Shown here: piece after piece, positions 6,430 through 26,956 of the stretch | How positions within the stretch are numbered: position 1 is the first letter of the stretch | Layout of the letters: each line of letters starts with the position of its first letter | Source of the DNA: an uncultured Steroidobacteraceae bacterium | GTDB taxonomy: Bacteria; Pseudomonadota; Gammaproteobacteria; Steroidobacterales; Steroidobacteraceae | Direction: 5' to 3' | DNA length: 26,956 bases | Assembly: GCA_964459405.1 (NCBI GenBank) | Contig: CAYWMY010000003.1 | Span: forward strand, 1 to 26,956 | Translations under genes and position numbers: made by a program | Notes under the pieces: model-generated | Databases searched by the model: none | Told to the model about the DNA's origin: nothing | Seen by the model: the letters and a program-made list of their open reading frames with translations, nothing else

Positions 6430-6592
6430 GGGCGGGGCCGAGCCGGGAAGCCTGGAACCACCCTGCGCGCACAACAATGCCGGGCGCTCCCGGCGGCGCC
6501 CCGCAGTCCCGGTGCCATTGAGCGGCCGCTGCGGCTCACACGCGGCGCCATGCGGCGCGGCCCCCGGTAGTACGCCGCCGGATGAGCCGCCT

Positions 6593-6841
6593 TCAGCGCT
6601 GGTCGGCTTCCAGCGCGCGCAGCCGCGCCTCCAGCGACTCGAGCTGCTCGCGGGTCCGGCGCAGCACTCCGGCCTGGACGTCGAACTCCTGCCGGGTCAC
6701 GAGATCGAGGCGCGACAACGCCGACTGCAGCACCGCGCGGAAGTTGTCCTCCACGTCGCGGCGCATCGCCGCGAGGCCGGGCGGCACCGCATCCATGAGT
6801 CGTCGGGCCAGGTCGTCGAGTGTCTTGGGATCGAAAGCCAT
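6593..6841 (-). CDS. ubiK: Ubiquinone biosynthesis accessory factor UbiK (YqiC family)
   Basis: 82 aa with LSRLDLVTRQEFDVQ and a C-terminal coiled coil. It sits between comM and the amtB/glnK locus as in Pseudomonas. Confidence 0.9.
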   Translation of the reverse strand: MAFDPKTLDDLARRLMDAVPPGLAAMRRDVEDNFRAVLQSALSRLDLVTRQEFDVQAGVLRRTREQLESLEARLRALEADQR

Positions 6842-6902
6842 GGGAGTCTCCGCACCGCGGTGGAGCGGGAGGATCGGTCCATCGCGCCACGCGGGTCAAG
6901 GA

Positions 6903-6949
6903 CTCGCCAAAATGGCGCAGGCGCGAGGCGTTCGCACCATTCCGGTGCG
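6903..6949. promoter_or_regulatory. Two tandem NtrC-like enhancer sites
   Basis: CGCACC-ATTCC-GGTGCG (6933-6949) is a perfect inverted repeat close to TGCACC-N5-GGTGCA. CTCGCC-AAAAT-GGCGCA (6903-6919) is weaker. The centres are 30 bp apart. Confidence 0.72.
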
Positions 6950-7012
6950 CCCGATCCTGCAGCCTGCCGAGCAGCGGCGCGCCAAGTTCCTGATTCATTG
7001 GGTCGCACTCCA

Positions 7013-7028
7013 TGGCACGGAAACTGCA
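7013..7028 (+). promoter_or_regulatory. Sigma54 (-24/-12) promoter for amtB-glnK
   Basis: TGGCACG-GAAA-CTGCA, with GG at 7014-7015 and GC at 7026-7027 giving exact GG-N10-GC spacing. Confidence 0.8.
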
Positions 7029-7178
7029 CCGGGGAGGCACAGGCTATACCGGCGCTGGCCGGCGGTCGTGACCGATTTCTGCTGTGAGCCGCGCAATTGG
7101 CGCAGCAGTCCCCGGGACCCGCACGACCGCGAACGGCGCAAGAGCCTGCCGACCCAACCCGAACTGGAGGATCCTTCC

Positions 7179-8585
7179 GTGACATGCCTGAGGCCACCTT
7201 CTCTGCGAACCGCCGCGCGGTTCGCCACCACGGCGGGACTGGGGCTTCTGCCCTGGCTCGCTTTCGCCGGCGACGCCCCGGTTCCCGACAAGGGCGATAC
7301 CGCGTGGATGCTGACATCCACGATGCTGGTCATCCTGATGACGATCCCCGGCCTCGCGCTCTTCTACGGCGGCATGGTCCGCTCGAAGAACGTGCTGTCC
7401 ATCCTGATGCAGGTGTTCATCGCGTTCTGCCTGTTCTCCGTGCTGTGGGTGATCTACGGCTACAGCCTCGCGTTCTCGGAGGGCGGAACCTTCTTCGCGG
7501 GGCTCAGCAAGGCCTTCCTGAACGGTGTCGACAGCAGCACGCTGGCGGCGACGTTCTCGAAGGGGATTTACCTGCCCGAGTACGTCTACATCGCCTTCCA
7601 GGGCACGTTCGCGGCGATCACGCCAGCGCTGATCGTCGGCGCCTTCGCCGAGCGCATCAAATTCTCGGCGGTGCTGCTGTTCCTGGTGCTGTGGTTCACT
7701 TTGTCCTATCTGCCCATCGCGCACATGGTGTGGTACTGGGACGGTCCGGATGCCTACACCAGCGCCGAGGCGGCTGCAGCCGCCGGTGCGAACGCCGGTC
7801 TGCTGTTCCAGTGGGGCGCGCTGGACTTCGCGGGTGGCACCGTGGTGCACATCAACGCCGGTATCGCCGGCCTGGTCGGCGCACTGCTGGCTGGCAAGCG
7901 GGTCGGCTACGGACAGACCGCAATGCAGCCGCACAACCTGCCGCTCGTCATGATCGGCGCGTCGCTGCTGTGGGTGGGCTGGTTCGGCTTCAACGTCGGC
8001 TCCAACCTGGAGAGCAACGCCTTCGCCGGGCAGGTGTTCGTGAACACCGTAGTGGCGACGGCGGTCGCGACCTTGGTGTGGACCTTCCTGGAGTGGATCG
8101 TGCGCGGATCGCCCACCATGCTGGGTGCGGCCTCGGGCGCAATCGCCGGCTTGGTCGCGATCACTCCGGCCTGCGGCTGGGTGGGTCCGATGGGAGCGAT
8201 CGTGATCGGCGCCGCCGGCGGCCTCGTGTGCCTGCTCGCGGTGACCTGGCTCAAGCCGAAGCTGGGCTATGACGATTCGCTGGACGTGTTCGGCGTGCAC
8301 TGCGTCGGCGGCATCGTCGGCGCAATCCTGACCGGCGTGTTTGCCGATCCGGCGCTGGGCGGTGCGGGCGTCTTCGACTACGTCGCGATGGAAACCGCGC
8401 CGTACGACATGGCCGCGCAGGTGTGGATCCAGACCAAGAGCGTGCTGCTGACGCTGCTGTGGTCCGGCACGGTCGCGGCCATCGCCTTCACGGCCGTCAA
8501 GTACACGATCGGCCTCAGGATCACCGAGGAACAGGAACGCGAGGGCCTGGACACGGTGGAGCATGGCGAGCGCGCCTACAGCTGA
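7179..8585 (+). CDS. amtB: Ammonium transporter AmtB (468 aa)
   Basis: GDTAWMLTSTMLV, FQGTFAAIT, HMVW, DFAGGTVVH, GWFGFN, DDSLDVFGVH and EQEREGLD..HGE motifs. GTG at 7179 lies 8 nt after GGAGG (7166-7170); the track start at 6582 is an upstream extension. Confidence 0.96.
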   Translation: MTCLRPPSLRTAARFATTAGLGLLPWLAFAGDAPVPDKGDTAWMLTSTMLVILMTIPGLALFYGGMVRSKNVLSILMQVFIAFCLFSVLWVIYGYSLAFSEGGTFFAGLSKAFLNGVDSSTLAATFSKGIYLPEYVYIAFQGTFAAITPALIVGAFAERIKFSAVLLFLVLWFTLSYLPIAHMVWYWDGPDAYTSAEAAAAAGANAGLLFQWGALDFAGGTVVHINAGIAGLVGALLAGKRVGYGQTAMQPHNLPLVMIGASLLWVGWFGFNVGSNLESNAFAGQVFVNTVVATAVATLVWTFLEWIVRGSPTMLGAASGAIAGLVAITPACGWVGPMGAIVIGAAGGLVCLLAVTWLKPKLGYDDSLDVFGVHCVGGIVGAILTGVFADPALGGAGVFDYVAMETAPYDMAAQVWIQTKSVLLTLLWSGTVAAIAFTAVKYTIGLRITEEQEREGLDTVEHGERAYS

Positions 8586-12466: not shown

Positions 12467-13616
12467 TCGCGGCCGGCGGCGGCGGACGGAACACGCGCCA
12501 GGCACAGAGCACCCACGCGCCGAGGCCCGCCAGGAACAGTATCAGGATGGCGAACGGGCCCACGACGGGCACGCGGCGCAGGAAGAAGATGAGCACAAGC
12601 GACCCCAGCAGCGCCAGGATGCGCGTTCGCGCGGACTGCAAGCGCTCATGCGCGAATCGCTCCAGCGCCCAGTCCCCGATGAACAGCGCGCCCGTCGTGT
12701 ACCCGAGCAGCAGCAGCAACGCATAGCCGAACATGGCCGCAAGCCCGAGCGGAATGCCGACCAGCGTCAGGAACAGGAAGATCATCAGCATCGGTACGCC
12801 GAACAGCACGGCGATGCCGAAGCCGGCGCTGACCAGGGGCTCGGCACTGATCGTGGACGTGGTGCGACGTGTGAATGCCGGCATCAGCAGCAGCATCACC
12901 GAGCCCAGCATGAACACCCCGAGCGCCCAGAGGAAACGTCCGAGGCCGAGGAGGAAGCGGCCCGGACCGTTGTCGTGGCTCCATCCCGAATGAGCCTGCC
13001 GCTCGTCGGGGCCCCGCGCGACGATCCCGCCCAGGATTTCGCTGTCGGGCGCGATCTGTGGCTCCCCTGGTCCGCGGTAGCGAAGTCTGCCGTCGATGTG
13101 TGCATTCGGGCCGACGACCAGCTGCTGTGCGGTGACTTCGACGTCCCCGCCTACCGCCCCGTCGATGACCACGCGCTGGCCGAAGGCCTGCAGGCCACGA
13201 CCGACACTGCCCTGCACACCGATGCGTCCGCCGGCCAGGGTCGCCGCGCCTTCGATGCGGACCCGCGGCTGAAGATCGACGCTGCCGCCCGCCAGGCGCG
13301 CATTGCCCGCGATCCGGCTGTCGACCCGCACGTCGCCGCCCGCCGCGTACAGGTCCTGCCCCGCGTCGGCACTCACGTCGACGCTGCCGCCGACGATCAC
13401 GATGTCGCCACCGACCGGCGCCGCGACAGTCACGCGTCCACCCGCGATGAAGGCGTCACCGGCGACTGCAGCGTCCAGGGCCACGTCATCGCCGGCCATG
13501 AAGCGGTCGCCGGCAAACGTGGCATCCGCCGGAGCCGCCCCGGCCGTGGCGGCACAGGTCACGGCGAGGACCGCGAGCATGTAGCGTCGCGCGCGTATCG
13601 TCACAGGCTGAAACAT
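12456..13616 (-). CDS. Exported beta-helix (polymer-forming/bactofilin-like) repeat protein with a C-terminal multi-pass membrane domain
   Basis: ATG at 13614-13616 with GGGAG upstream, a signal-like N-terminus, about 8 repeats of 17-19 aa (GDxxxAGGxVxVxxxV) at 13071-13511, then 4-5 hydrophobic helices. Overlaps the algR 3' end by 11 bp. Confidence 0.75.
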   Translation of the reverse strand: MFQPVTIRARRYMLAVLAVTCAATAGAAPADATFAGDRFMAGDDVALDAAVAGDAFIAGGRVTVAAPVGGDIVIVGGSVDVSADAGQDLYAAGGDVRVDSRIAGNARLAGGSVDLQPRVRIEGAATLAGGRIGVQGSVGRGLQAFGQRVVIDGAVGGDVEVTAQQLVVGPNAHIDGRLRYRGPGEPQIAPDSEILGGIVARGPDERQAHSGWSHDNGPGRFLLGLGRFLWALGVFMLGSVMLLLMPAFTRRTTSTISAEPLVSAGFGIAVLFGVPMLMIFLFLTLVGIPLGLAAMFGYALLLLLGYTTGALFIGDWALERFAHERLQSARTRILALLGSLVLIFFLRRVPVVGPFAILILFLAGLGAWVLCAWRVFRPPPPAATTA

Positions 13617-13760
13617 CGTCACGTCTCCCCGGCAGCCGCCGCCATCCGGCATAGCGACGCTCTGCGGCGTGGCCACGGCGCCCCGATGCTACGCCGGGAC
13701 ACGCTACGCCCGCCAGTTCGCCCGCGCACGGCGCGCAGCCTTCCATGGCAGAATGCAACG

Positions 13761-14696
13761 ATGCAGAAGAGACTCCGCATCGCGACCCGCCGCAGCCGCC
13801 TGGCGCTGTGGCAGGCCGAGCATGTGGCCGCACACCTCAAGGCCGCGCACCGCGACATCGACATCGAGCTCGTGCCGATCGTCACGGAAGGCGACCGCAT
13901 CCTCGATCGCACGCTGGCCGCAGTCGGTGGCAAGGGCCTGTTCATCAAGGAGCTCGAAGTCGCGATGCAGGAAGGGCGCGCCGATCTCGCTGTGCATTCC
14001 ATGAAGGATGTGCCGGCGGACCTGCCGCCCGGAATGATCATCGCCACCGTGCTGGAACGTGCCGATCCACACGACGCTTTCGTCTCGCCGCGGTTCAATG
14101 ACATCGCCGGGCTGCCGCATGGCGCGCGCGTCGGCACGGCCAGCCTGCGTCGTCAGTGCCAGCTGCGTCACCGCCGGCCCGATCTCGACATCCGGCCGCT
14201 TCGCGGCAACCTCGACACACGGCTGCGCCGGCTCGACGACGGCGAATTCGATGCGATCGTGCTCGCCGCGGCTGGACTTCGGCGCCTCGGTCTCGCGGAG
14301 CGCATCCGTGCGACGGTCGACGCGCGCGACTCGCTGCCCGCCGTGGGACAGGGGGTCGTCGGCGTCGAGTGCCGCGGGGACGACGCGGCGACGCGGAACC
14401 TGCTCGCACCGCTGGAGCATGCAGCCACGCGACTGTGTCTCGAAGCCGAGCGCGCCTTCGCCGCAAGGCTGGGTGGAAGCTGCCAGTCCCCGATCGCCGC
14501 CTTCGCGGAACAGAGCGGCGACGAGCTCCTGCTGCGCGGGCTCGTCGGCGCCCCCGATGGCAGCGCGCTGTTCGCCGATCGTATCGCGGGTGCCGCGGCG
14601 GACGGGCCTCGCCTCGGGGTCGAGCTCGCCGAACGGCTGCTCGCGGCCGGTGCCGGGCCGCTGCTCGCGATGCTGCGGACGCCGGAGCCGCGGTAG
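13761..14696 (+). CDS. hemC: Hydroxymethylbilane synthase (porphobilinogen deaminase)
   Basis: RIATRRSRLALWQA, GKGLFIKELE, AVHSMKD, GTASLRR, RGNLDTRL, and LGGSCQSP with the cofactor-binding Cys. ATG at 13761. Confidence 0.97.
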   Translation: MQKRLRIATRRSRLALWQAEHVAAHLKAAHRDIDIELVPIVTEGDRILDRTLAAVGGKGLFIKELEVAMQEGRADLAVHSMKDVPADLPPGMIIATVLERADPHDAFVSPRFNDIAGLPHGARVGTASLRRQCQLRHRRPDLDIRPLRGNLDTRLRRLDDGEFDAIVLAAAGLRRLGLAERIRATVDARDSLPAVGQGVVGVECRGDDAATRNLLAPLEHAATRLCLEAERAFAARLGGSCQSPIAAFAEQSGDELLLRGLVGAPDGSALFADRIAGAAADGPRLGVELAERLLAAGAGPLLAMLRTPEPR

Positions 14697-16538: not shown

Positions 16539-18002
16539 CTACAGACCGAGCTGCGGCCAGATGCTGTCGACCCGTGCGCGCACCTCGGCCGTCATCGCGA
16601 TCGGCCGGCCCCACTCGCGCGTCGTTTCTGCGGGCCACTTGTTCGTGGCGTCGATGCCGACCTTGGAGCCCAGGCCCGCGACGGGTGACGCGAAATCGAG
16701 ATAGTCGATCGGCGTGTTCTCGATGATCACGAGATCACGCCGCGGGTCCACACGCGTGGTCATGGCCCAGACGACCTCTTTCCAGTCACGCGCATCGACG
16801 TCGTCGTCGGTCACGATCACGAACTTCGTGTACATGAACTGGCGCAGGAACGACCACACGCCCATCATCACGCGCCTCGCGTGCCCCGGATACTGCTTCT
16901 TCATGCTCACGACCGCCATGCGATACGAGCATCCTTCGGGCGGCAGATAGAAATCCACGATCTCGGGGAACTGCCGCTGCAGGATCGGTACGAACACCTC
17001 GTTCAGCGCCACGCCCAGCACCGCCGGCTCGTCAGGCGGCTTGCCCGTGTAGGTGCTGTGATAGATCGGTCTCTGGCGATGCGTGATGCGCTCGATGGTC
17101 AGGACGGGAAACCGTTCCGTCTCGTTGTAATAGCCGGTGTGGTCGCCGAACGGCCCCTCGACGGCCGTATCGTCGGGATTGATGAAACCCTCGAGCACGA
17201 TCTCCGCGCTGGCCGGCACCTGCAGGTCGTGCGACAGACAGGTCACGAGCTCGGTGCGGCTGCCACGCAGCAGCCCTGCGAAGGCGTACTCCGACAGCGT
17301 GTCCGGCACTGGCGTGACGGCCGCGAGGATCGTCGCCGGGTCGGCGCCCAGCGTCACCGCGACGGGAAACGGCTGGCCTGGATTCGCCCGCTGCCAGTCG
17401 CGGAAATCGAGCGCGCCGCCGCGATGCGCGAGCCAGCGCATGATGACGCGGTTTCGATCGATGACCTGCTGCCGGTAGATGCCCATGTTCTGGCGCGCTC
17501 TGCCGGGTCCGCGCGTGGTTACAAGGCCCCAGGTGATCAGGGGACCCGCGTCGCCGGGCCAGCAGGTCTGGATCGGAAAGCGCGCCAGATCCACGGCCTC
17601 ACCCTCCAGCACGACCTCGCGGCAGGGCCCGTCACGCCTCTCCTTCGGCGCCATGTCGAGCGCCCTGCGGAACACCGGCAGCTTGTCCCATGCGTCGCGC
17701 CAGCCGCGCGGCGGCTCCGGCTCCTTGAGCTGGGCGAGCAGCAGGCCCACCTCACGCAGTTCCGCGACCTGCTCGCGACCCAGCGCGAGCGCCACGCGCG
17801 CAGGCGTGCCGAACAGGTTGCCGAGGACCGGCACCGTGTGCCCCTTCGGCCGCTCGAACAGGAGCGCCGGACCGGCCCGCTTCAGGGTACGGTCGCAGAT
17901 CTCCGTCATCTCGAGCCTGGGGTCGACCTCGACGCCGATGCGCCGCAGTTCGCCACGTGCCTCCAACTGGCTGAGCAGGTCGCGAAGATCGGTGTATTCC
18001 AT
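16539..18002 (-). CDS. ubiD: prFMN-dependent 4-hydroxy-3-polyprenylbenzoate decarboxylase
   Basis: [45 protein letters not shown] and GIDATNK motifs, very close to E. coli-type UbiD. Confidence 0.96.
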
Positions 18003-21423: not shown

Positions 21424-21555
21424 CGCGATACCCCCCATGACGGATCCTGAACCCGGCAGGCCGGGCCTGTCCTGCCCGCGCTCCGGGCCCGCCCCGCCGT
21501 GGCGGCGCGGCCGGACATACAACCGCGCGCCGCGGAGGCCGCCCCGCGCGCACGA

Positions 21556-22224
21556 TCAGCGCGCGAACAGCCTCGCTGGTGAGAACGCCCGCGCGCGCGC
21601 GCGGGCATGCTCGACGATCAGCCGATAATCGCTGGTCAGAACGCGTGGATCATGCGGTGCCGGGAAAGTGGCAACCAGAGCGCCCGAAGGACCCACGACA
21701 AACAGGCTCGAGCCATGCTCGATCGTGTAAGTTCCATCCGGGCGCACGATGCGCGCATACCCCAGCCCGAAAACCTGCGCCGTACGCGAGATCGCCTGCG
21801 GCGTGCCGGTCGCGGCCAGGAATCCCGGATTGAACGACCGCACATAGGATTGCAGTCGTGCGGCGTCGTCCCGTTCCGGATCAACCGTGATCAGCAGCAC
21901 GCGCGGACGGTCGGTGGCGGGAATGTCCTGCAGCTGGCGGTCCACCTGCGCGAGCATCGCGAGCGTGGTCGGGCAGACATCCGGGCAGGCCGTGAAGCCG
22001 AAGAAGACCAGGGTCCAGTGACCCTTGAACGCGTCCTCGCCGAAGGGCCGTCCGTCCTGGTCCGTGAGCGACAGAGCCGGCAGTGCGCCCGACTCGCTCA
22101 GCAGAGAAGCGCGCACCAGGGGTGGCGGCGCGGGCGGCGAGAACAGTGCGCGCGCGGCCAGGTACCCGAGTACCGTGGCGCCGACCACCAGCACGACGAG
22201 GCGGATCACCCGTGCGGTTGTCAT
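21556..22224 (-). CDS. SCO/SenC-family copper chaperone, N-terminally anchored (222 aa)
   Basis: FFGFTACPDVCP (CxxxCP), ITVDPERD, and a conserved His in IEHGS. ATGA overlap with the hemerythrin stop. Confidence 0.92.
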   Translation of the reverse strand: MTTARVIRLVVLVVGATVLGYLAARALFSPPAPPPLVRASLLSESGALPALSLTDQDGRPFGEDAFKGHWTLVFFGFTACPDVCPTTLAMLAQVDRQLQDIPATDRPRVLLITVDPERDDAARLQSYVRSFNPGFLAATGTPQAISRTAQVFGLGYARIVRPDGTYTIEHGSSLFVVGPSGALVATFPAPHDPRVLTSDYRLIVEHARARARAFSPARLFAR

Positions 22225-22631
22225 GGCTGCGGCTGCTTCCCGGCAACGAAGCGGTGCAGGCGCACATCGAAGCTCGCGAAATGATCCCCGAACCACGCCG
22301 ACAGACGCTCCGAGAAACGGGCCTCGTCGAGAATGCCCTGCTCGCTGACCTCGTCCATGATGTCGCGGATGTCATCGAGCAGCCGCTCGTGATCCTGCTT
22401 GTGTGCATCACGCTCGGGATAGCGCATGGCCTGCATGGACTTCTCTTCCAGCGCGAAATGCGCCGAAATGCGCGCGAGGATCTCGCCGAGGAATCCCTCG
22501 ACACGCTCAGGTGAATGATCCGTGCCGAGAGCAGCGTGCAGATCGTTGATCAGCTGGATCATCTCGCGATGCTCATGGTCCACTTCGGCGATGCCGATGC
22601 TGAACCGGTCCTGCCATTCGAGCACACCCAT
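22221..22631 (-). CDS. Single-domain bacterial hemerythrin (di-iron), 136 aa
   Basis: LEWQDRFSIGIAEVDHEH, HFALEE, HKQDH and HFASFD supply the usual His/Glu/Asp ligand pattern. ATG at 22629-22631 overlaps the upstream TAA; the track start at 22868 is an extension. Confidence 0.92.
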   Translation of the reverse strand: MGVLEWQDRFSIGIAEVDHEHREMIQLINDLHAALGTDHSPERVEGFLGEILARISAHFALEEKSMQAMRYPERDAHKQDHERLLDDIRDIMDEVSEQGILDEARFSERLSAWFGDHFASFDVRLHRFVAGKQPQP

Positions 22632-24745
22632 TACCGCGTCTCCCCGCCCGACAGCGTCGCCGGCACGAGCCGACGACCGAAACTGAAGGCGTTCTCCTTG
22701 CCGCGGAAGTCGATGACGAAATTCTCGCCGGGGGTGACCGTCACGGGGGCCGAGGTCGAGTAGTCGAATCCCGATGCACGCCCGCCGTCCCGCACACGGA
22801 CCGACGCCACGTGCGTGCCGGCCGGCACGCGGAAGCGCGCATAGACCGTCGACGGCCCGTCGTCCCACAGACCCGCCGGCTGATAGGTACCCGCGTGCAT
22901 ACGCCTGCCATCCAGGTCGAACTCGACGTATACGGGCCAGCGGCCGCGTTCACAGGTCGTCGGCCGGCGCTCTTCGAACGGCAGCTTCGCAAGCTCATCC
23001 GGCGTATAGCGCTTGCAGGGCTTCAGCGGCTGACCCGCGTGGCTGAAGCTCAGTTTCACCATGGCTTCGTCACGACCGAGCAGGCCGTAGGCCGGGCGGG
23101 TCGCGAACCAGGCAATGAACACAGCGACACCCGCAAGCACGGCCACCTGTCCAGCCACCCGGAGCGGCATGAGCAGCTGCCGCGGCGTGGCATGCCAGGC
23201 CCTGCCCGTGCGCCCCCTGGTCGGCGCTCCCGCGCGCTCGCGCAGCTGCGCACGGAACTCGCGCAGCTCATGCTGCAGGCGTCGGCCCTCGACCGCCGTG
23301 GTCCAGGAGACGGCGACGCGGTCGCGATCGACACGCTCGCGCAGGTACGGGTCGCGCTCGCTCGCGATGCGCTGCTCGACCCAGCGATCGCCCAGGCGGT
23401 GGAAGCAGTCGCCCGGGGCACACCCCGCGATCAGCACGCCGTCCGCCAGTTTCTTCGAGACCGCGAAATCAATGAACGACGGCGGCAGCATGCCCACGCA
23501 GGGCGCGGCGATCACGGCGACGCCGGGGTCCCGCAGCTGTTCGGCGCGGGTCGCGGGCTCGCAGCGGAACACGAGCACACGATCCTCGCCCTGCAGCGCT
23601 CCGGCCTCGGCCACCACGCGTTCACGGAGGGCCTCGATCGGCCGGTCCCCGAGCTCGATGCCGGGCACGAGCGCGCTCGAGCGCCGGAACGGCGTGGCCG
23701 TGGGGCATGCGCCCACGCACAGGCCGCAACTCGTGCACGCGTCGGGGTCGACGCGTGCCTCCTGATCGAACGTGAGCCCGTCGCTGCGCGGTACCATGGT
23801 AATGGCGCCATACGGACAGTCCGCGAAACAGCGCCCGCAGCCGTTGCAGTTGTCCAGGTGCACCACGGCGGGGGCCGGCTTGCGCAGCGGCGGCAGCCAG
23901 GGCATCAGCGTCAGCAGCACACTGCCGCCGACCAGCAGGGCCCAGAGCGTCCGGCCGTCCAGATAATCGAGCAGCGGGTAGACCGCGAGGTAGAACCAGT
24001 CGAGCCCGACCTCGAAGGCCATACGGTCGAGGTCGGCCGGCGCCTGGCTCAGGGCCGGCACGACCAGCGACAGCAGCAGCAGCGATCCGATCACCATCAG
24101 GCTGAGCGCTCGCGGCGGGTTGACGCGCGCGTGTGCATGCCGCTGGATGTGCACCCACATCATGAGCAGCATCACCAGCGGCACGGCGATGTGGATGTAG
24201 GCCATCAGCGTAAAGAAGCGGCCGCTCAGGTGCGTGCTGTCGAGGAAGTTGCGCGCGATGGGTTCGGCGAAGATGCCGATGCTGTCCAGCCATTCAGAGG
24301 TCGTGATCGCGACGTACTGTGCGAGCGCGTCCCATGCGAGCCAGTAGCCCGTGATGCCGCTGGCGTACAGGAACCAGAGCAGCGGCACGCCCGTGACCCA
24401 GGGGAACCAGCGGTTGCCGCGCATCCGGTCGAGCGAGAACTCCCGCAGCACGTGCAGCAGCACGACGATGACCATGCCGTCGGACGCGTAGCGGTGCAGG
24501 CTGCGCATGATGCCGCCCAGATACCACTGGTCGACCGACAGCTTCTCCAGCGAGCTGTACGCCTGCGTGACACCGGTATCGAAGAAGATGTAGACGTAGA
24601 TGCCCGTGACGGCGACGATCCAGAACAGGAACCAGCCGAGCGGTCCCAGGTGCACCATGGGATTCAGCGTCGGGCCGAAGATCGCGGCGCAGAACTGTTC
24701 GAGGCGCGCGAAGAACACGCGCAATGGAGCCTTGATGAAATTCAA
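22631..24745 (-). CDS. Cytochrome b / 2x[4Fe-4S] ferredoxin / MvhD-FlpD [2Fe-2S] / membrane-anchored C-terminal domain fusion (704 aa)
   Basis: Heme-b His pairs H84/H98 and H185/H199, GYWLAWD, CNGCGRCFADCP and CTSCGLCVGACP, MvhD-like C395, C416 and GCAPGDC (C442, C447), a TM segment at about 530-549, and a beta-rich C-terminus with C577 and C598. TTG start overlaps the upstream TGA. Confidence 0.88.
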   Translation of the reverse strand: MNFIKAPLRVFFARLEQFCAAIFGPTLNPMVHLGPLGWFLFWIVAVTGIYVYIFFDTGVTQAYSSLEKLSVDQWYLGGIMRSLHRYASDGMVIVVLLHVLREFSLDRMRGNRWFPWVTGVPLLWFLYASGITGYWLAWDALAQYVAITTSEWLDSIGIFAEPIARNFLDSTHLSGRFFTLMAYIHIAVPLVMLLMMWVHIQRHAHARVNPPRALSLMVIGSLLLLSLVVPALSQAPADLDRMAFEVGLDWFYLAVYPLLDYLDGRTLWALLVGGSVLLTLMPWLPPLRKPAPAVVHLDNCNGCGRCFADCPYGAITMVPRSDGLTFDQEARVDPDACTSCGLCVGACPTATPFRRSSALVPGIELGDRPIEALRERVVAEAGALQGEDRVLVFRCEPATRAEQLRDPGVAVIAAPCVGMLPPSFIDFAVSKKLADGVLIAGCAPGDCFHRLGDRWVEQRIASERDPYLRERVDRDRVAVSWTTAVEGRRLQHELREFRAQLRERAGAPTRGRTGRAWHATPRQLLMPLRVAGQVAVLAGVAVFIAWFATRPAYGLLGRDEAMVKLSFSHAGQPLKPCKRYTPDELAKLPFEERRPTTCERGRWPVYVEFDLDGRRMHAGTYQPAGLWDDGPSTVYARFRVPAGTHVASVRVRDGGRASGFDYSTSAPVTVTPGENFVIDFRGKENAFSFGRRLVPATLSGGETR

Positions 24746-25536
24746 TGTACGTTCCGCCAGGAAAGGACGATGGCAACGCCCACCATGCCGAGTGCAAGCA
24801 CTCCCGCGACGATCTCCATGATGAGCGAGGGATCGAAGCGATACTTGCCGCTCGCTGGATCATAGATGGTACACAACAGCTTGACCGAGCGGACGAGGTC
24901 GGACAGCGACCCTCGCTCGAGCGCCTGGCCGCGGATCAGCTGCTTCAGCGGCTCGACGAGCGCGGGCGGCCGGAGGTCCTGCCCGTAGACCTGCAGCGCG
25001 ACACGTCCGCCGGGGTCGATGACCGTGGTCTGGATGATGTGATCGAAACCCTTGGGCGACGCCTTGTAGCTGAAACCCACGTCGCGCATGAGTCTCTCCA
25101 TGGTCGCGGCGTCGGTGCTGGCGAAGATCCAGTCGGGCGTCACGACGCCGCGTTCCCGGGCGTAGAGACGCATGCGCTCCGGCGTGTCGTTCGGGGTGTC
25201 GAAGCCCACCGTCAGTACCGTGAAGCTCCCCGGCCCCAGTGCCTGCCGCGCAAGCTTCACGACCTCGCGCAGGTTCACGGTCAGCCCGGAGCAGATCGCA
25301 TAGCAGCTCGTATAGACAAGGCTCAGCACCACCGGCCTGCCGCGCAGTTCAGCGAAGCTGAACCGCGTGCCATCAGCGTCGATCAGCGCATGGTCACCGA
25401 CGACCCGGCCGATCGCCGCCTGGCTCGCGGCCAGTTCGGGATTCTCCGTGACGGGCACGGACCGGGCCGCAAGCAACGGCAGCAACCACAGCGCTGCAAC
25501 CACGGCCGCCCGGAATCTCGTTTGCACTGAAGGCAT
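24742..25536 (-). CDS. SCO-family protein with a signal peptide and a C-terminal TM anchor (264 aa)
   Basis: YTSCYAICS (C78xxxC82), TVGFDTPNDTP, His in GFDHII, and CTIYDPASGKY before a C-terminal hydrophobic helix. Confidence 0.87.
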   Translation of the reverse strand: MPSVQTRFRAAVVAALWLLPLLAARSVPVTENPELAASQAAIGRVVGDHALIDADGTRFSFAELRGRPVVLSLVYTSCYAICSGLTVNLREVVKLARQALGPGSFTVLTVGFDTPNDTPERMRLYARERGVVTPDWIFASTDAATMERLMRDVGFSYKASPKGFDHIIQTTVIDPGGRVALQVYGQDLRPPALVEPLKQLIRGQALERGSLSDLVRSVKLLCTIYDPASGKYRFDPSLIMEIVAGVLALGMVGVAIVLSWRNVH

Positions 25537-25615
25537 GTCCCGACCGCCGTCCCGTCAGCCCGCCCCGGGGCCACAGGTGGCTGCACCCGCCCCCCGCAAC
25601 AGCGGCACCCGCGTC

Positions 25616-25629
25616 TTGTCTCGCACCAA
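25616..25629. promoter_or_regulatory. Possible Crp/Fnr-family (FNR/DNR/NnrR) box
   Basis: TTGGT-GCGA-GACAA on the minus strand keeps the TTG-N8-CAA core but has 3 mismatches to TTGAT-N4-ATCAA. It lies 80 bp upstream of the SCO start. No clear -10 element. Confidence 0.3.
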
Positions 25630-25881
25630 GCGACTCTCCCGGATCGGCTCGAGGCCGCGCGCCGCCACAGGGTGGCAGCAGCCCGAGCCGGGCGGTTGCG
25701 ATCGATGGTACAACGGCGGGAGCCCGAAATGTGCCCGTGCACCGCGCAAGGGGGCTCAGGCTGAACGACAGGACCGGGACGAGGGAGCCGTCGCGTCGCA
25801 TGTCCGCGACCGCGGCATCGGATGGGCGCCGTGGCCACTTCGGGCGCCCGACGCCCGTTCGATTCTGGAAATCCGGGTGCC

Positions 25882-25913
25882 GCGCCCGCGCACAGCCCTC
25901 TGTGCGCGGGCGC
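25882..25913 (-). terminator. Perfect 14-bp GC hairpin 7 nt after the subunit I stop
   Basis: GCGCCCGCGCACAG-CCCT-CTGTGCGCGGGCGC. No U-tract follows on the minus strand, so it is a 3'-protecting stem or partial terminator rather than a classic one. Confidence 0.55.
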
Positions 25914-25920
25914 CTCGAGG

Positions 25921-26956
25921 TCACTTCAGCGGCCAGATCTCGGCCACGTACTTCCAGTTGACGAAGTAGTACAGCACGAAGGAGACGAAGAACACGCCCA
26001 CGAGGACCACGGTACCCGGGATGTACAGCGTGCCCTGGTTGCCGTAGCTCGCGACGGCCGCCGCGGACTTGGCGCCGCTCACAGGCCCCAGTTGCACGGC
26101 CTCCTTGTCACCGATCTTGCGGCCGAACAGCACCGTGCAGACAACGGTTACGACGTACATCGCGCCGCCCAGAGCCGCCATGATCGCCGAGATGCCGTTC
26201 AGCGCCAGCATCAGGAACGCCGCCGGCGAGTACTGGAACTGCGTCAGCGCATCGGCAAAGGTGATGTCCCAGTGCCGCCGCGGCACGCCCAGCGTGCCCG
26301 CGCCCATCATGAACAGCGAGATTCCCGCCGCGCCGAGCCCGAAGATGTACGGCTGCAGCTTGGCCACCGTCGGGAAGATCACCTCACGACGGAAGATCAG
26401 CGGCAGGACGAGGTACGTGATCGCCATGAAGGCGAGCGTCGTACCGGTCACGACCGTCGCATGGAAGTGACCCGGCACGTAGAGCGTGTTGTGCATCGTC
26501 AGGTTGATCTGCTCCGTTCCGAGCACGACGCCCGTGATGCCGCCCAGGAAGCCGAAGTACACGAGCGACATGAACATGCCCGAGAACGCCGGGTTGCCCC
26601 ATGGCGCCTTGCGCAGCCACTCGAACAGGCCCTTCGTGTAGCCCTTGGCGCGCTGCGCGGCCTCGATCGCGCCCGGCACGGTCATGCCGTGGATCATGCT
26701 GCCCATGACCGCCAGGTACATCGCATAGCTGGTATTGAAGATCTTCCAGCTCGAGCTGACACCCGGCTCCGCCAGCAGGTGGTGCGCGCTGGCGAGCTGC
26801 AGGAACAGGATGTACATCAGGTAGGCCGCACGGCTGACCTTCTCGGAGATCGGCTTGGCGCCCAGCACCATCGCACCGATGGCGTACCACACGGCCACGT
26901 GGGCCGAGACGTTGATCTGCTGGGAGGAATGGCCCATGGCCCACCACACCAGCTTG
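25921..26956 (-). CDS. Heme-copper oxidoreductase subunit I, B-family-like fold with Tyr-to-Gln active site (putative eNOR-type nitric oxide reductase), 5'-truncated
   Basis: The frame is open to the window edge (KLVWWAMGHSSQQIN...). CuB/FeB ligands: H at 26929-26931 and SAHH at 26779-26784. HNTLYVPGHFH (26461-26493) matches the ba3-type HNT..VPGHFH, and the VPRR arginine pair is present. The residue at His+4 is Gln, not Tyr. Confidence 0.85.
   Translation of the reverse strand, partial: KLVWWAMGHSSQQINVSAHVAVWYAIGAMVLGAKPISEKVSRAAYLMYILFLQLASAHHLLAEPGVSSSWKIFNTSYAMYLAVMGSMIHGMTVPGAIEAAQRAKGYTKGLFEWLRKAPWGNPAFSGMFMSLVYFGFLGGITGVVLGTEQINLTMHNTLYVPGHFHATVVTGTTLAFMAITYLVLPLIFRREVIFPTVAKLQPYIFGLGAAGISLFMMGAGTLGVPRRHWDITFADALTQFQYSPAAFLMLALNGISAIMAALGGAMYVVTVVCTVLFGRKIGDKEAVQLGPVSGAKSAAAVASYGNQGTLYIPGTVVLVGVFFVSFVLYYFVNWKYVAEIWPLK

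Follow-up and report, generated by a model that had tools for sequence, protein, structure and literature searches.

A cytochrome b–ferredoxin–MvhD fusion in an eNOR-type heme-copper enzyme operon of a Steroidobacteraceae bacterium

The eNOR-type enzymes are reported to rank among the commonest nitric oxide (NO) reductases in environmental data and hence a source of N2O (PMC11214002), while the electron supply of this group of enzymes is not established. In Ferrigenium straubiae, eNOR II and eNOR I are encoded in an operon with sco1, heme o synthase and what has been called a 'scaffold protein of unknown function'; the operon is accompanied by two 'rather unusual' genes resembling chain C of the bc1 complex, one combining cytochrome b and iron–sulfur (Fe-S) domains with FAD and NADH domains, the other consisting of cytochrome b and Fe-S domains (10.64898/2026.01.22.701106). 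The gene with the FAD/NADH domains has been proposed to encode a quinol:NAD+ oxidoreductase, and the products of all these genes were found in the proteome (10.64898/2026.01.22.701106, section 6.5.2). Here we describe a gene of comparable design in a 26,956-nucleotide stretch of DNA from an uncultured Steroidobacteraceae bacterium (contig CAYWMY010000003.1; the whole stretch is referred to as the window). It encodes a fusion of a bc1/b6-type cytochrome b, a ferredoxin, an MvhD/FlpD-like domain and a membrane-anchored beta-sandwich. The fusion typifies a family that is widespread but uncharacterised, and its assignment as an accessory redox subunit of an operon for an eNOR-type heme-copper oxidoreductase (HCO) is well supported.

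The Ferrigenium preprint is the closest published description of the fusion. Compared by description only, both share a cytochrome b with partial similarity to bc1 chain C and an [Fe-S] domain; the Ferrigenium paralogue with FAD/NADH domains corresponds to the protein P0208 and to a gene of locus L084 in our sample, and the gene content of the Ferrigenium operon is that of L084, albeit in a different order. The preprint, which regards the genes as unusual and as possible Ferrigenium markers, mentions neither the MvhD domain nor a fused beta-sandwich or hemerythrin partner, whereas we find the family to be widespread and to accompany the majority of operons of this HCO clade. The function is hypothesised alike in both studies. 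In addition, a protein that combines cytochrome b6 with DMSOR-beta-like, FlpD and cytochrome c domains is listed, uncommented, in PMC8756737 (Table A3).

The individual parts of the fusion are reminiscent of several well-known systems. With the cytochrome b of bc1 and b6f complexes (PetB, QcrB) it shares the fold of helices A–F, four histidines with 13-residue spacing, an RSxHR(Y/W) motif, the 'WD' of helix cd1 and a PEWY-like motif in the ef loop. However, the membrane core stops after helix F (AlphaFold, Foldseek), without helices G–H, subunit IV or recognisable Qi residues; neither a Rieske Fe-S protein nor cytochrome c1/f is encoded in the window or the conserved operon, and no bc complex is known to have cytoplasmic Fe-S domains fused to it. 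The C-terminal part of MvhD-containing HdrA2 has the same succession of 2x[4Fe-4S] and an MvhD fold with four cysteines, but the fusion lacks the HdrA flavin core, has no hydrogenase or Hdr genes nearby and is anchored in the membrane. NarI–NarH, QmoC, HdrED and DsrMK are established examples of the same logic, in which a stacked pair of b hemes is connected to Fe-S clusters in the cytoplasm and the membrane is thereby linked with a cytoplasmic redox partner; they employ a five-helix cytochrome b of the NarI/HdrE kind with CCG or NarH-type Fe-S proteins, whereas the fusion combines a bc1-type cytochrome b with MvhD and is linked to an HCO. The system extends this theme of a membrane di-heme b plus cytoplasmic Fe-S in a new form. 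NOX, FRE and STEAP proteins and MsrQ share the working principle proposed here, from cytoplasmic NAD(P)H through flavin and membrane b heme(s) to an acceptor outside, which P0208 mirrors, but their membrane fold is unrelated to that of the fusion and the likeness is an analogy only. ExtP (NF040969), a cytochrome of about 205 residues without Fe-S domains, is the top NCBIfam match for residues 32-202 (E 1e-24; 87 bits against an equivalog cutoff of 290).

Architecture and distribution of the fusion

An initial annotation, made from the sequence without database searches, had read a single 704-residue open reading frame (ORF) as a four-domain cytochrome b–ferredoxin–MvhD fusion, a reading borne out by Pfam, PDB and Foldseek searches and by conservation (Table 1). 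The Cytochrome_B profile (PF00033) matches residues 26-200 (E 4e-15; 56.5 bits against a gathering score of 27.2), two Fer4 units exceed their gathering scores at residues 293-350, and the FlpD profile (PF02662) covers residues 406-503 (E 2e-14; 54.1 bits against a threshold of 22.3), which supports the MvhD assignment. PDB sequence searches relate the N-terminus to cytochrome b6 (1.6e-15) and the MvhD-like domain to MvhD (5odc_D, 4e-10), with C416, C442 and C447 falling on MvhD cysteines, while C395 lies in the N-terminal strand of the domain. The AlphaFold model has a mean pLDDT of 81; in Foldseek comparisons about 280-320 of its columns align to helices A–F of bc1 cytochrome b, and the MvhD-like domain superimposes on MvhD with a TM-score of 0.70. 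The likeness to the C-terminal part of HdrA-MvhD, likewise proposed at the outset, is found again in the NCBIfam HdrA2 profile, whose positions 569-770 match residues 290-503 (E 9e-23; 80 bits against a cutoff of 1100); with only these positions matched, neither an HdrA FAD-binding core nor a full-length HdrA2 match was found in the NCBIfam search.

The predicted cofactor-binding residues are invariant across 64 full-length homologues. In alignment, homologues also share the start position and the N-terminal sequence. The predicted four heme histidines, bis-His ligands on helices B and D, are H84, H98, H185 and H199, with 13 residues between H84 and H98 and between H185 and H199; they align to the histidines of cytochrome b6 and form the ligand pairs H84/H185 and H98/H199. 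Eight cysteines make up the two CxxCxxCxxxCP motifs (C300/303/306/310-P and C337/340/343/347-P), which had been placed at about 23696-23863 and map to 23702-23848. The MvhD-type set, rightly located at about 23246-23584, consists of C395, C416, C442 and C447, encoded between 23405 and 23563. H569, C577 and C598 of the last domain are equally invariant. In the cytochrome b part, GYWLAWDALAQ resembles the cd1 motif and LDWFY the PEWY motif, and these Qo-type elements are kept in every variant of the fusion.

The presence of a further transmembrane (TM) helix and a soluble last domain agrees with hydropathy and with the AlphaFold model, in which a TM helix is followed by a beta-sandwich (pLDDT 91). 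This last domain is without significant structural relative in Foldseek (best E 0.014); the hits are generic sandwiches of the Ig, CBM20 and CARDB kind and permit no assignment. A topology with the N-terminus and the Fe-S domains in the cytoplasm and the last domain in the periplasm, as first deduced from counting helices, fits the bc1 fold, the distribution of Arg and Lys in the loops and the cytochrome c at the C-terminus of the homologue P0256. c-type cytochromes are necessarily periplasmic, and the periplasmic C-terminus is confirmed by the one that P0256 bears at this position. To describe the protein as a single-chain wire across the membrane is fair as anatomy, but its last domain is a separate gene in many relatives; which cofactors it holds, and which way electrons run through it, is inferred.

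In the databases the fusion is neither rare nor unusual; it belongs to a large family. A word-indexed search returned 4609 matches, the best 120 of which are nearly all of the same length and domain composition, and its uninterrupted architecture recurs in over 100 proteins of some 700 residues. An exhaustive search yielded 553 clusters (50% identity) at E<=1e-30, many of them proteins of 690-720 residues that align over their full length at 30-36% identity. The nearest genome relative is a Steroidobacteraceae metagenome-assembled genome (MAG; 82% identity), and homologues extend beyond the Proteobacteria to Nitrospinota, Thermodesulfobacteriota and Spirochaetia; NCBI labels them 'hydrogenase iron-sulfur subunit' or 'cytochrome b N-terminal domain-containing protein'. 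The module of TM helix and beta-sandwich is fused in 28 of 74 scorable loci, mostly from Steroidobacteraceae and other gammaproteobacterial MAGs, and forms its own downstream gene of about 170 residues in the other 46, mostly from Alphaproteobacteria; as a 167-residue query it returned 8 matches. The gammaproteobacterial loci L018, L052 and L070 score as split despite fused close relatives and may contain frameshifts or assembly errors. Of the plasmid matches to the cytochrome b part, the two inspected were rejected as relatives of the fusion, one from Deinococcus (a Rieske/cytochrome b beside an oxidase operon) and one from Streptomyces (another cytochrome b among metal-ATPase genes).

Several variants exchange parts of the architecture. 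In one clade, represented by P0256, a cytochrome c domain takes the place of the last module, and the gene directly follows those for subunits II and I of a genuine B-type oxidase with the Tyr in place. In the paralogue P0208 the cytochrome b is retained (51% identity over residues 21-289), but a diflavin reductase takes the place of the Fe-S domains (Flavodoxin_1, FAD_binding_1, NAD_binding_1); its gene lies in the same kind of cluster, adjoining SCO1 and NnrS. In locus L093, a NuoF-like FMN/NADH gene sits between two copies of the fusion and overlaps both, and a weak tblastn match to this gene occurs in L138. The absence of a flavin- or NAD-binding partner, as first remarked, holds for the window but not for these relatives. 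P0245 is a fusion of SCO, cytochrome b and Fer4. In L084 (8001-11798) the diflavin paralogue is followed by NnrS and, further on, by a Crp-family regulator, hemerythrin and DUF2249, a strongly NO-related neighbourhood.

The heme-copper enzyme and its operon

The initial annotation overlooked the operon around the fusion. The gene sits in a translationally coupled HCO operon on the minus strand, with a probable end after SCO1 (Table 1). Stop and start codons overlap between the SCO-like gene and the fusion (TTGA), between the fusion and the hemerythrin gene (TAATG) and between the hemerythrin gene and SCO1 (ATGA). The order of subunit I, SCO-like protein, fusion, hemerythrin and SCO1 is kept in essentially all of 80 genome loci from Gamma-, Alpha- and Betaproteobacteria. 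The SCO-like gene lies directly upstream of the fusion in every one of them (80/80), subunit I is present in 72, the remaining 8 contigs being cut upstream, and hemerythrin in 69, with 10 of the 11 exceptions on contigs cut downstream. Even among members at 30-36% identity, 6 of 7 sampled, as well as the locus of the diflavin paralogue, adjoin COX1, SCO1 and/or UbiA genes. The association also holds in reverse: of 80 metagenome loci picked via an eNOR-type subunit I, 31 extend 5 kb or more downstream, and the fusion is found in 24 of these 31.

Table 1. Features of the fusion gene and its operon in the window
Feature	Coordinates	Strand	Evidence and remarks
Fusion ORF: cytochrome b A-F, 2x[4Fe-4S] ferredoxin, MvhD/FlpD, TM helix, beta-sandwich (in this order)	22631..24745	-	704 aa, TTG start
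bc1/b6-type cytochrome b, helices A-F, residues 1-290	23876..24745	-	Pfam, PDB search, alignment, Foldseek
2x[4Fe-4S] ferredoxin domain, residues 293-352	23690..23869	-	Pfam Fer4 families, invariant Cys
MvhD/FlpD-like domain, residues 388-505, putative [2Fe-2S]	23231..23584	-	PF02662, 5odc_D, Foldseek
Seventh TM helix, residues 526-549, Arg-rich linker before it	23099..23170	-	Hydropathy, AlphaFold
Predicted periplasmic beta-sandwich, residues 552-690	22676..23092	-	AlphaFold, alignment, no known family
HCO subunit I, C-terminal 342 residues; gene runs past window end	25921..26949	-	Pfam COX1 E 6e-33
Intergenic gap, 384 nt; GC-rich inverted repeat after subunit I stop	25537..25920	-	tblastn, no remnant
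SCO-like thioredoxin-fold protein, 264 aa, CYAIC	24742..25536	-	Pfam SCO1-SenC E 4e-10, above threshold
Bacteriohemerythrin, 136 aa	22221..22631	-	NCBIfam NF033749, 94.3 bits vs cutoff 84
Canonical SCO1/SenC copper chaperone, 222 aa, CPDVCP	21556..22224	-	Pfam SCO1-SenC E 2e-37
Terminator-like hairpin after SCO1, probable operon end	21523..21535	-	Consensus match only

The neighbouring enzyme is B-family-like and is filed here as eNOR-type, an assignment by residues, not by phylogeny. Subunit I is nearest to ba3 (B-family) oxidases in PDB searches (1e-43, against 1e-5 for the A-family); the search and the residue comparison with ba3 used the full-length copy of locus L017, which is 96% identical to subunit I of the window. 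It reads GHSSQQINV where ba3 has GHPIVYFWL, so that the cross-link Tyr237 is aligned to Gln, and retains the three metal-site histidines, both heme histidines and Y248, S261 and S309 of the ba3 K-channel. In 93 loci, 72 subunit I genes share the GHSSQQ-type motif, those beside the most distant fusion genes among them. Gln at the position of the cross-link Tyr is the published marker of eNOR, on which the assignment rests (PMC8756737, Table A4 and Fig. 6 legend), whereas sNOR and bNOR have Asn there and sNOR is without Ser309 (PMC8756737, Table A4 and Fig. 6; PMC11214002). Full operons of relatives begin with a subunit II of about 181 residues with a complete CuA motif (H...CNEYCGLGHHTM in L017, L043 and L081); the window itself ends inside subunit I. 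The enzyme, CuA-containing and with Gln in place of Tyr, is probably nitric-oxide-reducing. The sNOR cluster norSY-senC-orf1 of ammonia oxidisers, in which orf1 of N. europaea (NE0681) is up 2.2-fold under O2 limitation, has the same gene order and was considered as an identification, but the HCO described here has Gln instead of Asn and retains Ser309.

Two further observations concern the HCO superfamily. In the Thermus thermophilus plasmid pTthSNM6-6b (L094, 1182-9678) an eNOR-type HCO with GHGAQQVNL and no fusion is surrounded by cytochrome P460, a multicopper oxidase, a cytochrome c, an Rrf2 regulator and a DUF542 protein, and in Thermomicrobium roseum (L095) the HCO is paired with a 600-residue CtaA-CtaB-like heme o synthase. 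A second HCO-superfamily gene of about 476-498 residues recurs in more distant operons (L084 4020-5516, L072 4954-6420, L090 1681-3114, L093 9824-11254, L091 5323-6759). It keeps the His of helix VI (GGGHxLQ) and the HxH of helix X but lacks the two CuB/FeB histidines of helix VII, and its product has no complete binuclear site.

Most relatives carry a heme o synthase (CyoE/UbiA) between subunit I and the SCO-like gene; in all, 74 of 98 loci searched have the gene. In the window this position is taken up by the 384-nt gap, in which a tblastn search with the CyoE of L043 found no heme o synthase remnant; the gene is missing from the same position in the closest relative, L017. The inverted repeat in the gap, GCGCCCGCGCACAG...CTGTGCGCGGGCGC, stands right after the stop codon of subunit I. 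The SCO-like protein is atypical, with a weak SCO1 score and CYAIC in place of CPDVC; hydrophobic helices at both ends would place its C-terminus in the cytoplasm beside the N-terminus of the fusion. Hemerythrin is the sole cytoplasmic protein of the operon.

The ubiquinone genes near the fusion, to which the initial annotation had drawn attention, are an incidental context, because ubiD (16539..18002) lies 4.6 kb off, behind the operon genes SCO1 and hemerythrin and the unrelated PspC, HlyD and ABC-transporter genes.

Electron transfer and alternative explanations

The fusion probably belongs to the electron supply or the maturation of the HCO, and not to ubiquinone synthesis. As a tentative proposal that we prefer to the alternatives below, it may pass electrons from cytoplasmic donors via its Fe-S clusters and hemes b to the HCO. 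Electrons of a cytoplasmic donor, which in relatives would be NAD(P)H acting through the fused diflavin reductase or the NuoF-like partner, would enter at the MvhD-like cluster, cross the two [4Fe-4S] clusters to the inner and then the outer heme b, the two b hemes being stacked across the membrane, and leave on the periplasmic face towards the CuA subunit of the neighbouring enzyme. The seventh helix would carry the beta-sandwich to the periplasmic side, where this cofactor-less domain could serve as a docking or scaffold element for which a cytochrome c domain substitutes in one clade. The NO- (or O2-) reducing enzyme would thus be supplied without recourse to the quinone pool, to bc1 or to soluble cytochrome c, and the co-translated hemerythrin might buffer or sense NO/O2, or protect the Fe-S clusters.

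The proposed polarity draws on the variants. Diflavin-type modules carry electrons from NAD(P)H to an acceptor, and a tethered cytochrome c is a classical CuA donor. P0256, P0208 and the NuoF-like gene of L093 point to an entry of electrons at the cytoplasmic module, with NAD(P)H as the ultimate source, and to a periplasmic exit toward the HCO, much as in NOX/FRE/MsrQ shuttles but on a scaffold of the bc1 type; the cytochrome c of P0256, encoded after subunits II and I, fits the role of a tethered CuA donor. In the proteome of Ferrigenium straubiae, proteins of matching described domain content were detected under denitrifying growth (bioRxiv 10.64898/2026.01.22.701106, section 6.5.2).

A number of points weigh against this proposal. 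No cytoplasmic donor is encoded in the window. All variants keep the periplasmic-side motifs of the bc1/b6f Qo quinol site, GYWxxWDxxAQ and DW(F/Y)Y, and the outer site could bind quinone and not a protein partner. The fusion is interleaved with the maturation genes for SCO, heme o synthase, PCuAC and CtaG, which an assembly role fits equally well. A distant member in Nitrospinota (L088) has no HCO nearby, and, conversely, the eNOR-type operons of Thermus thermophilus plasmids and Thermomicrobium roseum do without the fusion, so the enzyme is not strictly dependent on it. Finally, outward electron flow dissipates membrane potential and is therefore sensible for detoxification or overflow, not for energy conservation.

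The Qo-like motifs lend themselves to the opposite polarity, in which quinol is oxidised at a periplasmic Qo-like pocket and electrons travel inward via the hemes and Fe-S clusters to a cytoplasmic acceptor, as in the redox loops of NarI–NarH and DsrMK. The acceptor might be O2 or NO bound to hemerythrin, the operon's only cytoplasmic protein, or else NAD+ or ferredoxin in a bifurcating version as proposed for Ferrigenium, with the other electron going to the CuA of eNOR. Cofactor ligands aside, little in the family is as well conserved as the cd1-like and PEWY-like motifs; the plan of a di-heme b with cytoplasmic Fe-S domains parallels known quinol dehydrogenases, and a quinol:NAD+ oxidoreductase coupling has been proposed for the Ferrigenium homologue (10.64898/2026.01.22.701106). 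What makes inward flow rather doubtful is that the operons encode no Rieske protein or other high-potential first acceptor and that a tethered cytochrome c as in P0256 would be roleless in a purely inward flow. The quinol couple, moreover, lies at about +0.09 V for ubiquinone or -0.07 V for menaquinone, against -0.32 V for NAD(P)+, and with the diflavin paralogue or the NuoF-like neighbour the reaction would run uphill and against the membrane potential.

A role in maturation, and not in the catalytic cycle, is about as doubtful. The fusion would be a transmembrane reductase that brings single electrons to the periplasmic side and acts there on Cu(II) or the SCO-like protein during assembly of CuA or another metal centre, or would take part in the conversion of heme O to an A-type heme with hemerythrin as O2 carrier. 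It is always found right behind the SCO-like gene and translationally coupled to it, and distant loci place it between SCO1 and UbiA or beside PCuAC and CtaG. Metalloreductases of the NOX/STEAP/FRE kind, which lead electrons from cytoplasmic NAD(P)H through b-type hemes (one in STEAP, two in NOX and FRE) to metal outside, provide a precedent. Reduction of SCO and TlpA is, however, known to use the thiol-based CcdA/DsbD and not hemes, the cytochrome c variant right after subunits II and I resembles a catalytic donor, and the lone SCO fusion, P0245, which would otherwise favour this role, could be a read-through of overlapping genes. As regards heme, eNOR uses heme As and many eNOR operons bear CtaA (PMC11214002); with heme o synthase so common in the loci searched, a CtaA homologue lies within 8 kb of the fusion in just one of the 98. 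The suggestion that the fusion substitutes for heme A synthase was nonetheless set aside: the HCO-selected sample has CtaA in 2 of 31 loci, one with and one without the fusion, so that CtaA is rare in both and the comparison decides nothing, and CtaA may sit elsewhere in the genome.

It is quite improbable, on our reading, that the fusion and the eNOR-type enzyme make up a supercomplex that bifurcates quinol oxidation at the Qo-like pocket, one electron going to CuA and the very high-potential NO/O2 reduction and the other through the b hemes to the low-potential Fe-S/MvhD chain, or to the flavin/NAD(P) module in paralogues. If true, this would amount to a Rieske-less quinone-based bifurcation, with a low-potential reductant obtained from respiratory NO reduction, as speculated for Ferrigenium. 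Still less credible is an independent ferredoxin/NAD(P)H:quinone oxidoreductase that stands beside the HCO genes by chance: the orphan L088 and the conserved quinone-site-like pocket would suit such an enzyme, but synteny with HCO, SCO and hemerythrin, with stop and start codons that overlap, is kept across phyla and in members at only 30% identity. A misassembly or frameshift joining separate genes, a thought that the separate last domain of 46 of 74 relatives might encourage, can be dismissed, since the same uninterrupted architecture is found in 28 genome loci from many independent assemblies and in the more than 100 proteins of similar length, with full-length members at 30-36% identity.

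The fusion is built to connect Fe-S or flavin chemistry in the cytoplasm to the membrane's periplasmic side, and its family is present in most operons of a clade whose electron supply is in question. If the preferred role as electron input is correct, cytoplasmic reductant would directly drive the reduction of NO in many Alpha-, Beta- and Gammaproteobacteria, which would change how the energetics and regulation of N2O production are modelled. If the fusion oxidises or bifurcates quinol instead, it would constitute a new type of Rieske-less bc complex. Cultured isolates bear the operon, among them Litoreibacter arenae DSM 19593, Aurantimonas marina, Sulfitobacter sp. JB4-11 and Pelagibius marinus, which makes its function directly testable.

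Other genes of the window

Two ORFs elsewhere in the window appear to have misplaced or extended N-termini. An ammonium transporter ORF (6582-8585, plus strand) has its Amt domain at residues 241-666, and its first 240 or so residues are without domain match, pointing to a wrong start or an N-terminal extension. In a 682-residue ORF at 12648-14696 (plus strand) the porphobilinogen deaminase domains occupy residues 376-665, and the real start is probably much further downstream.

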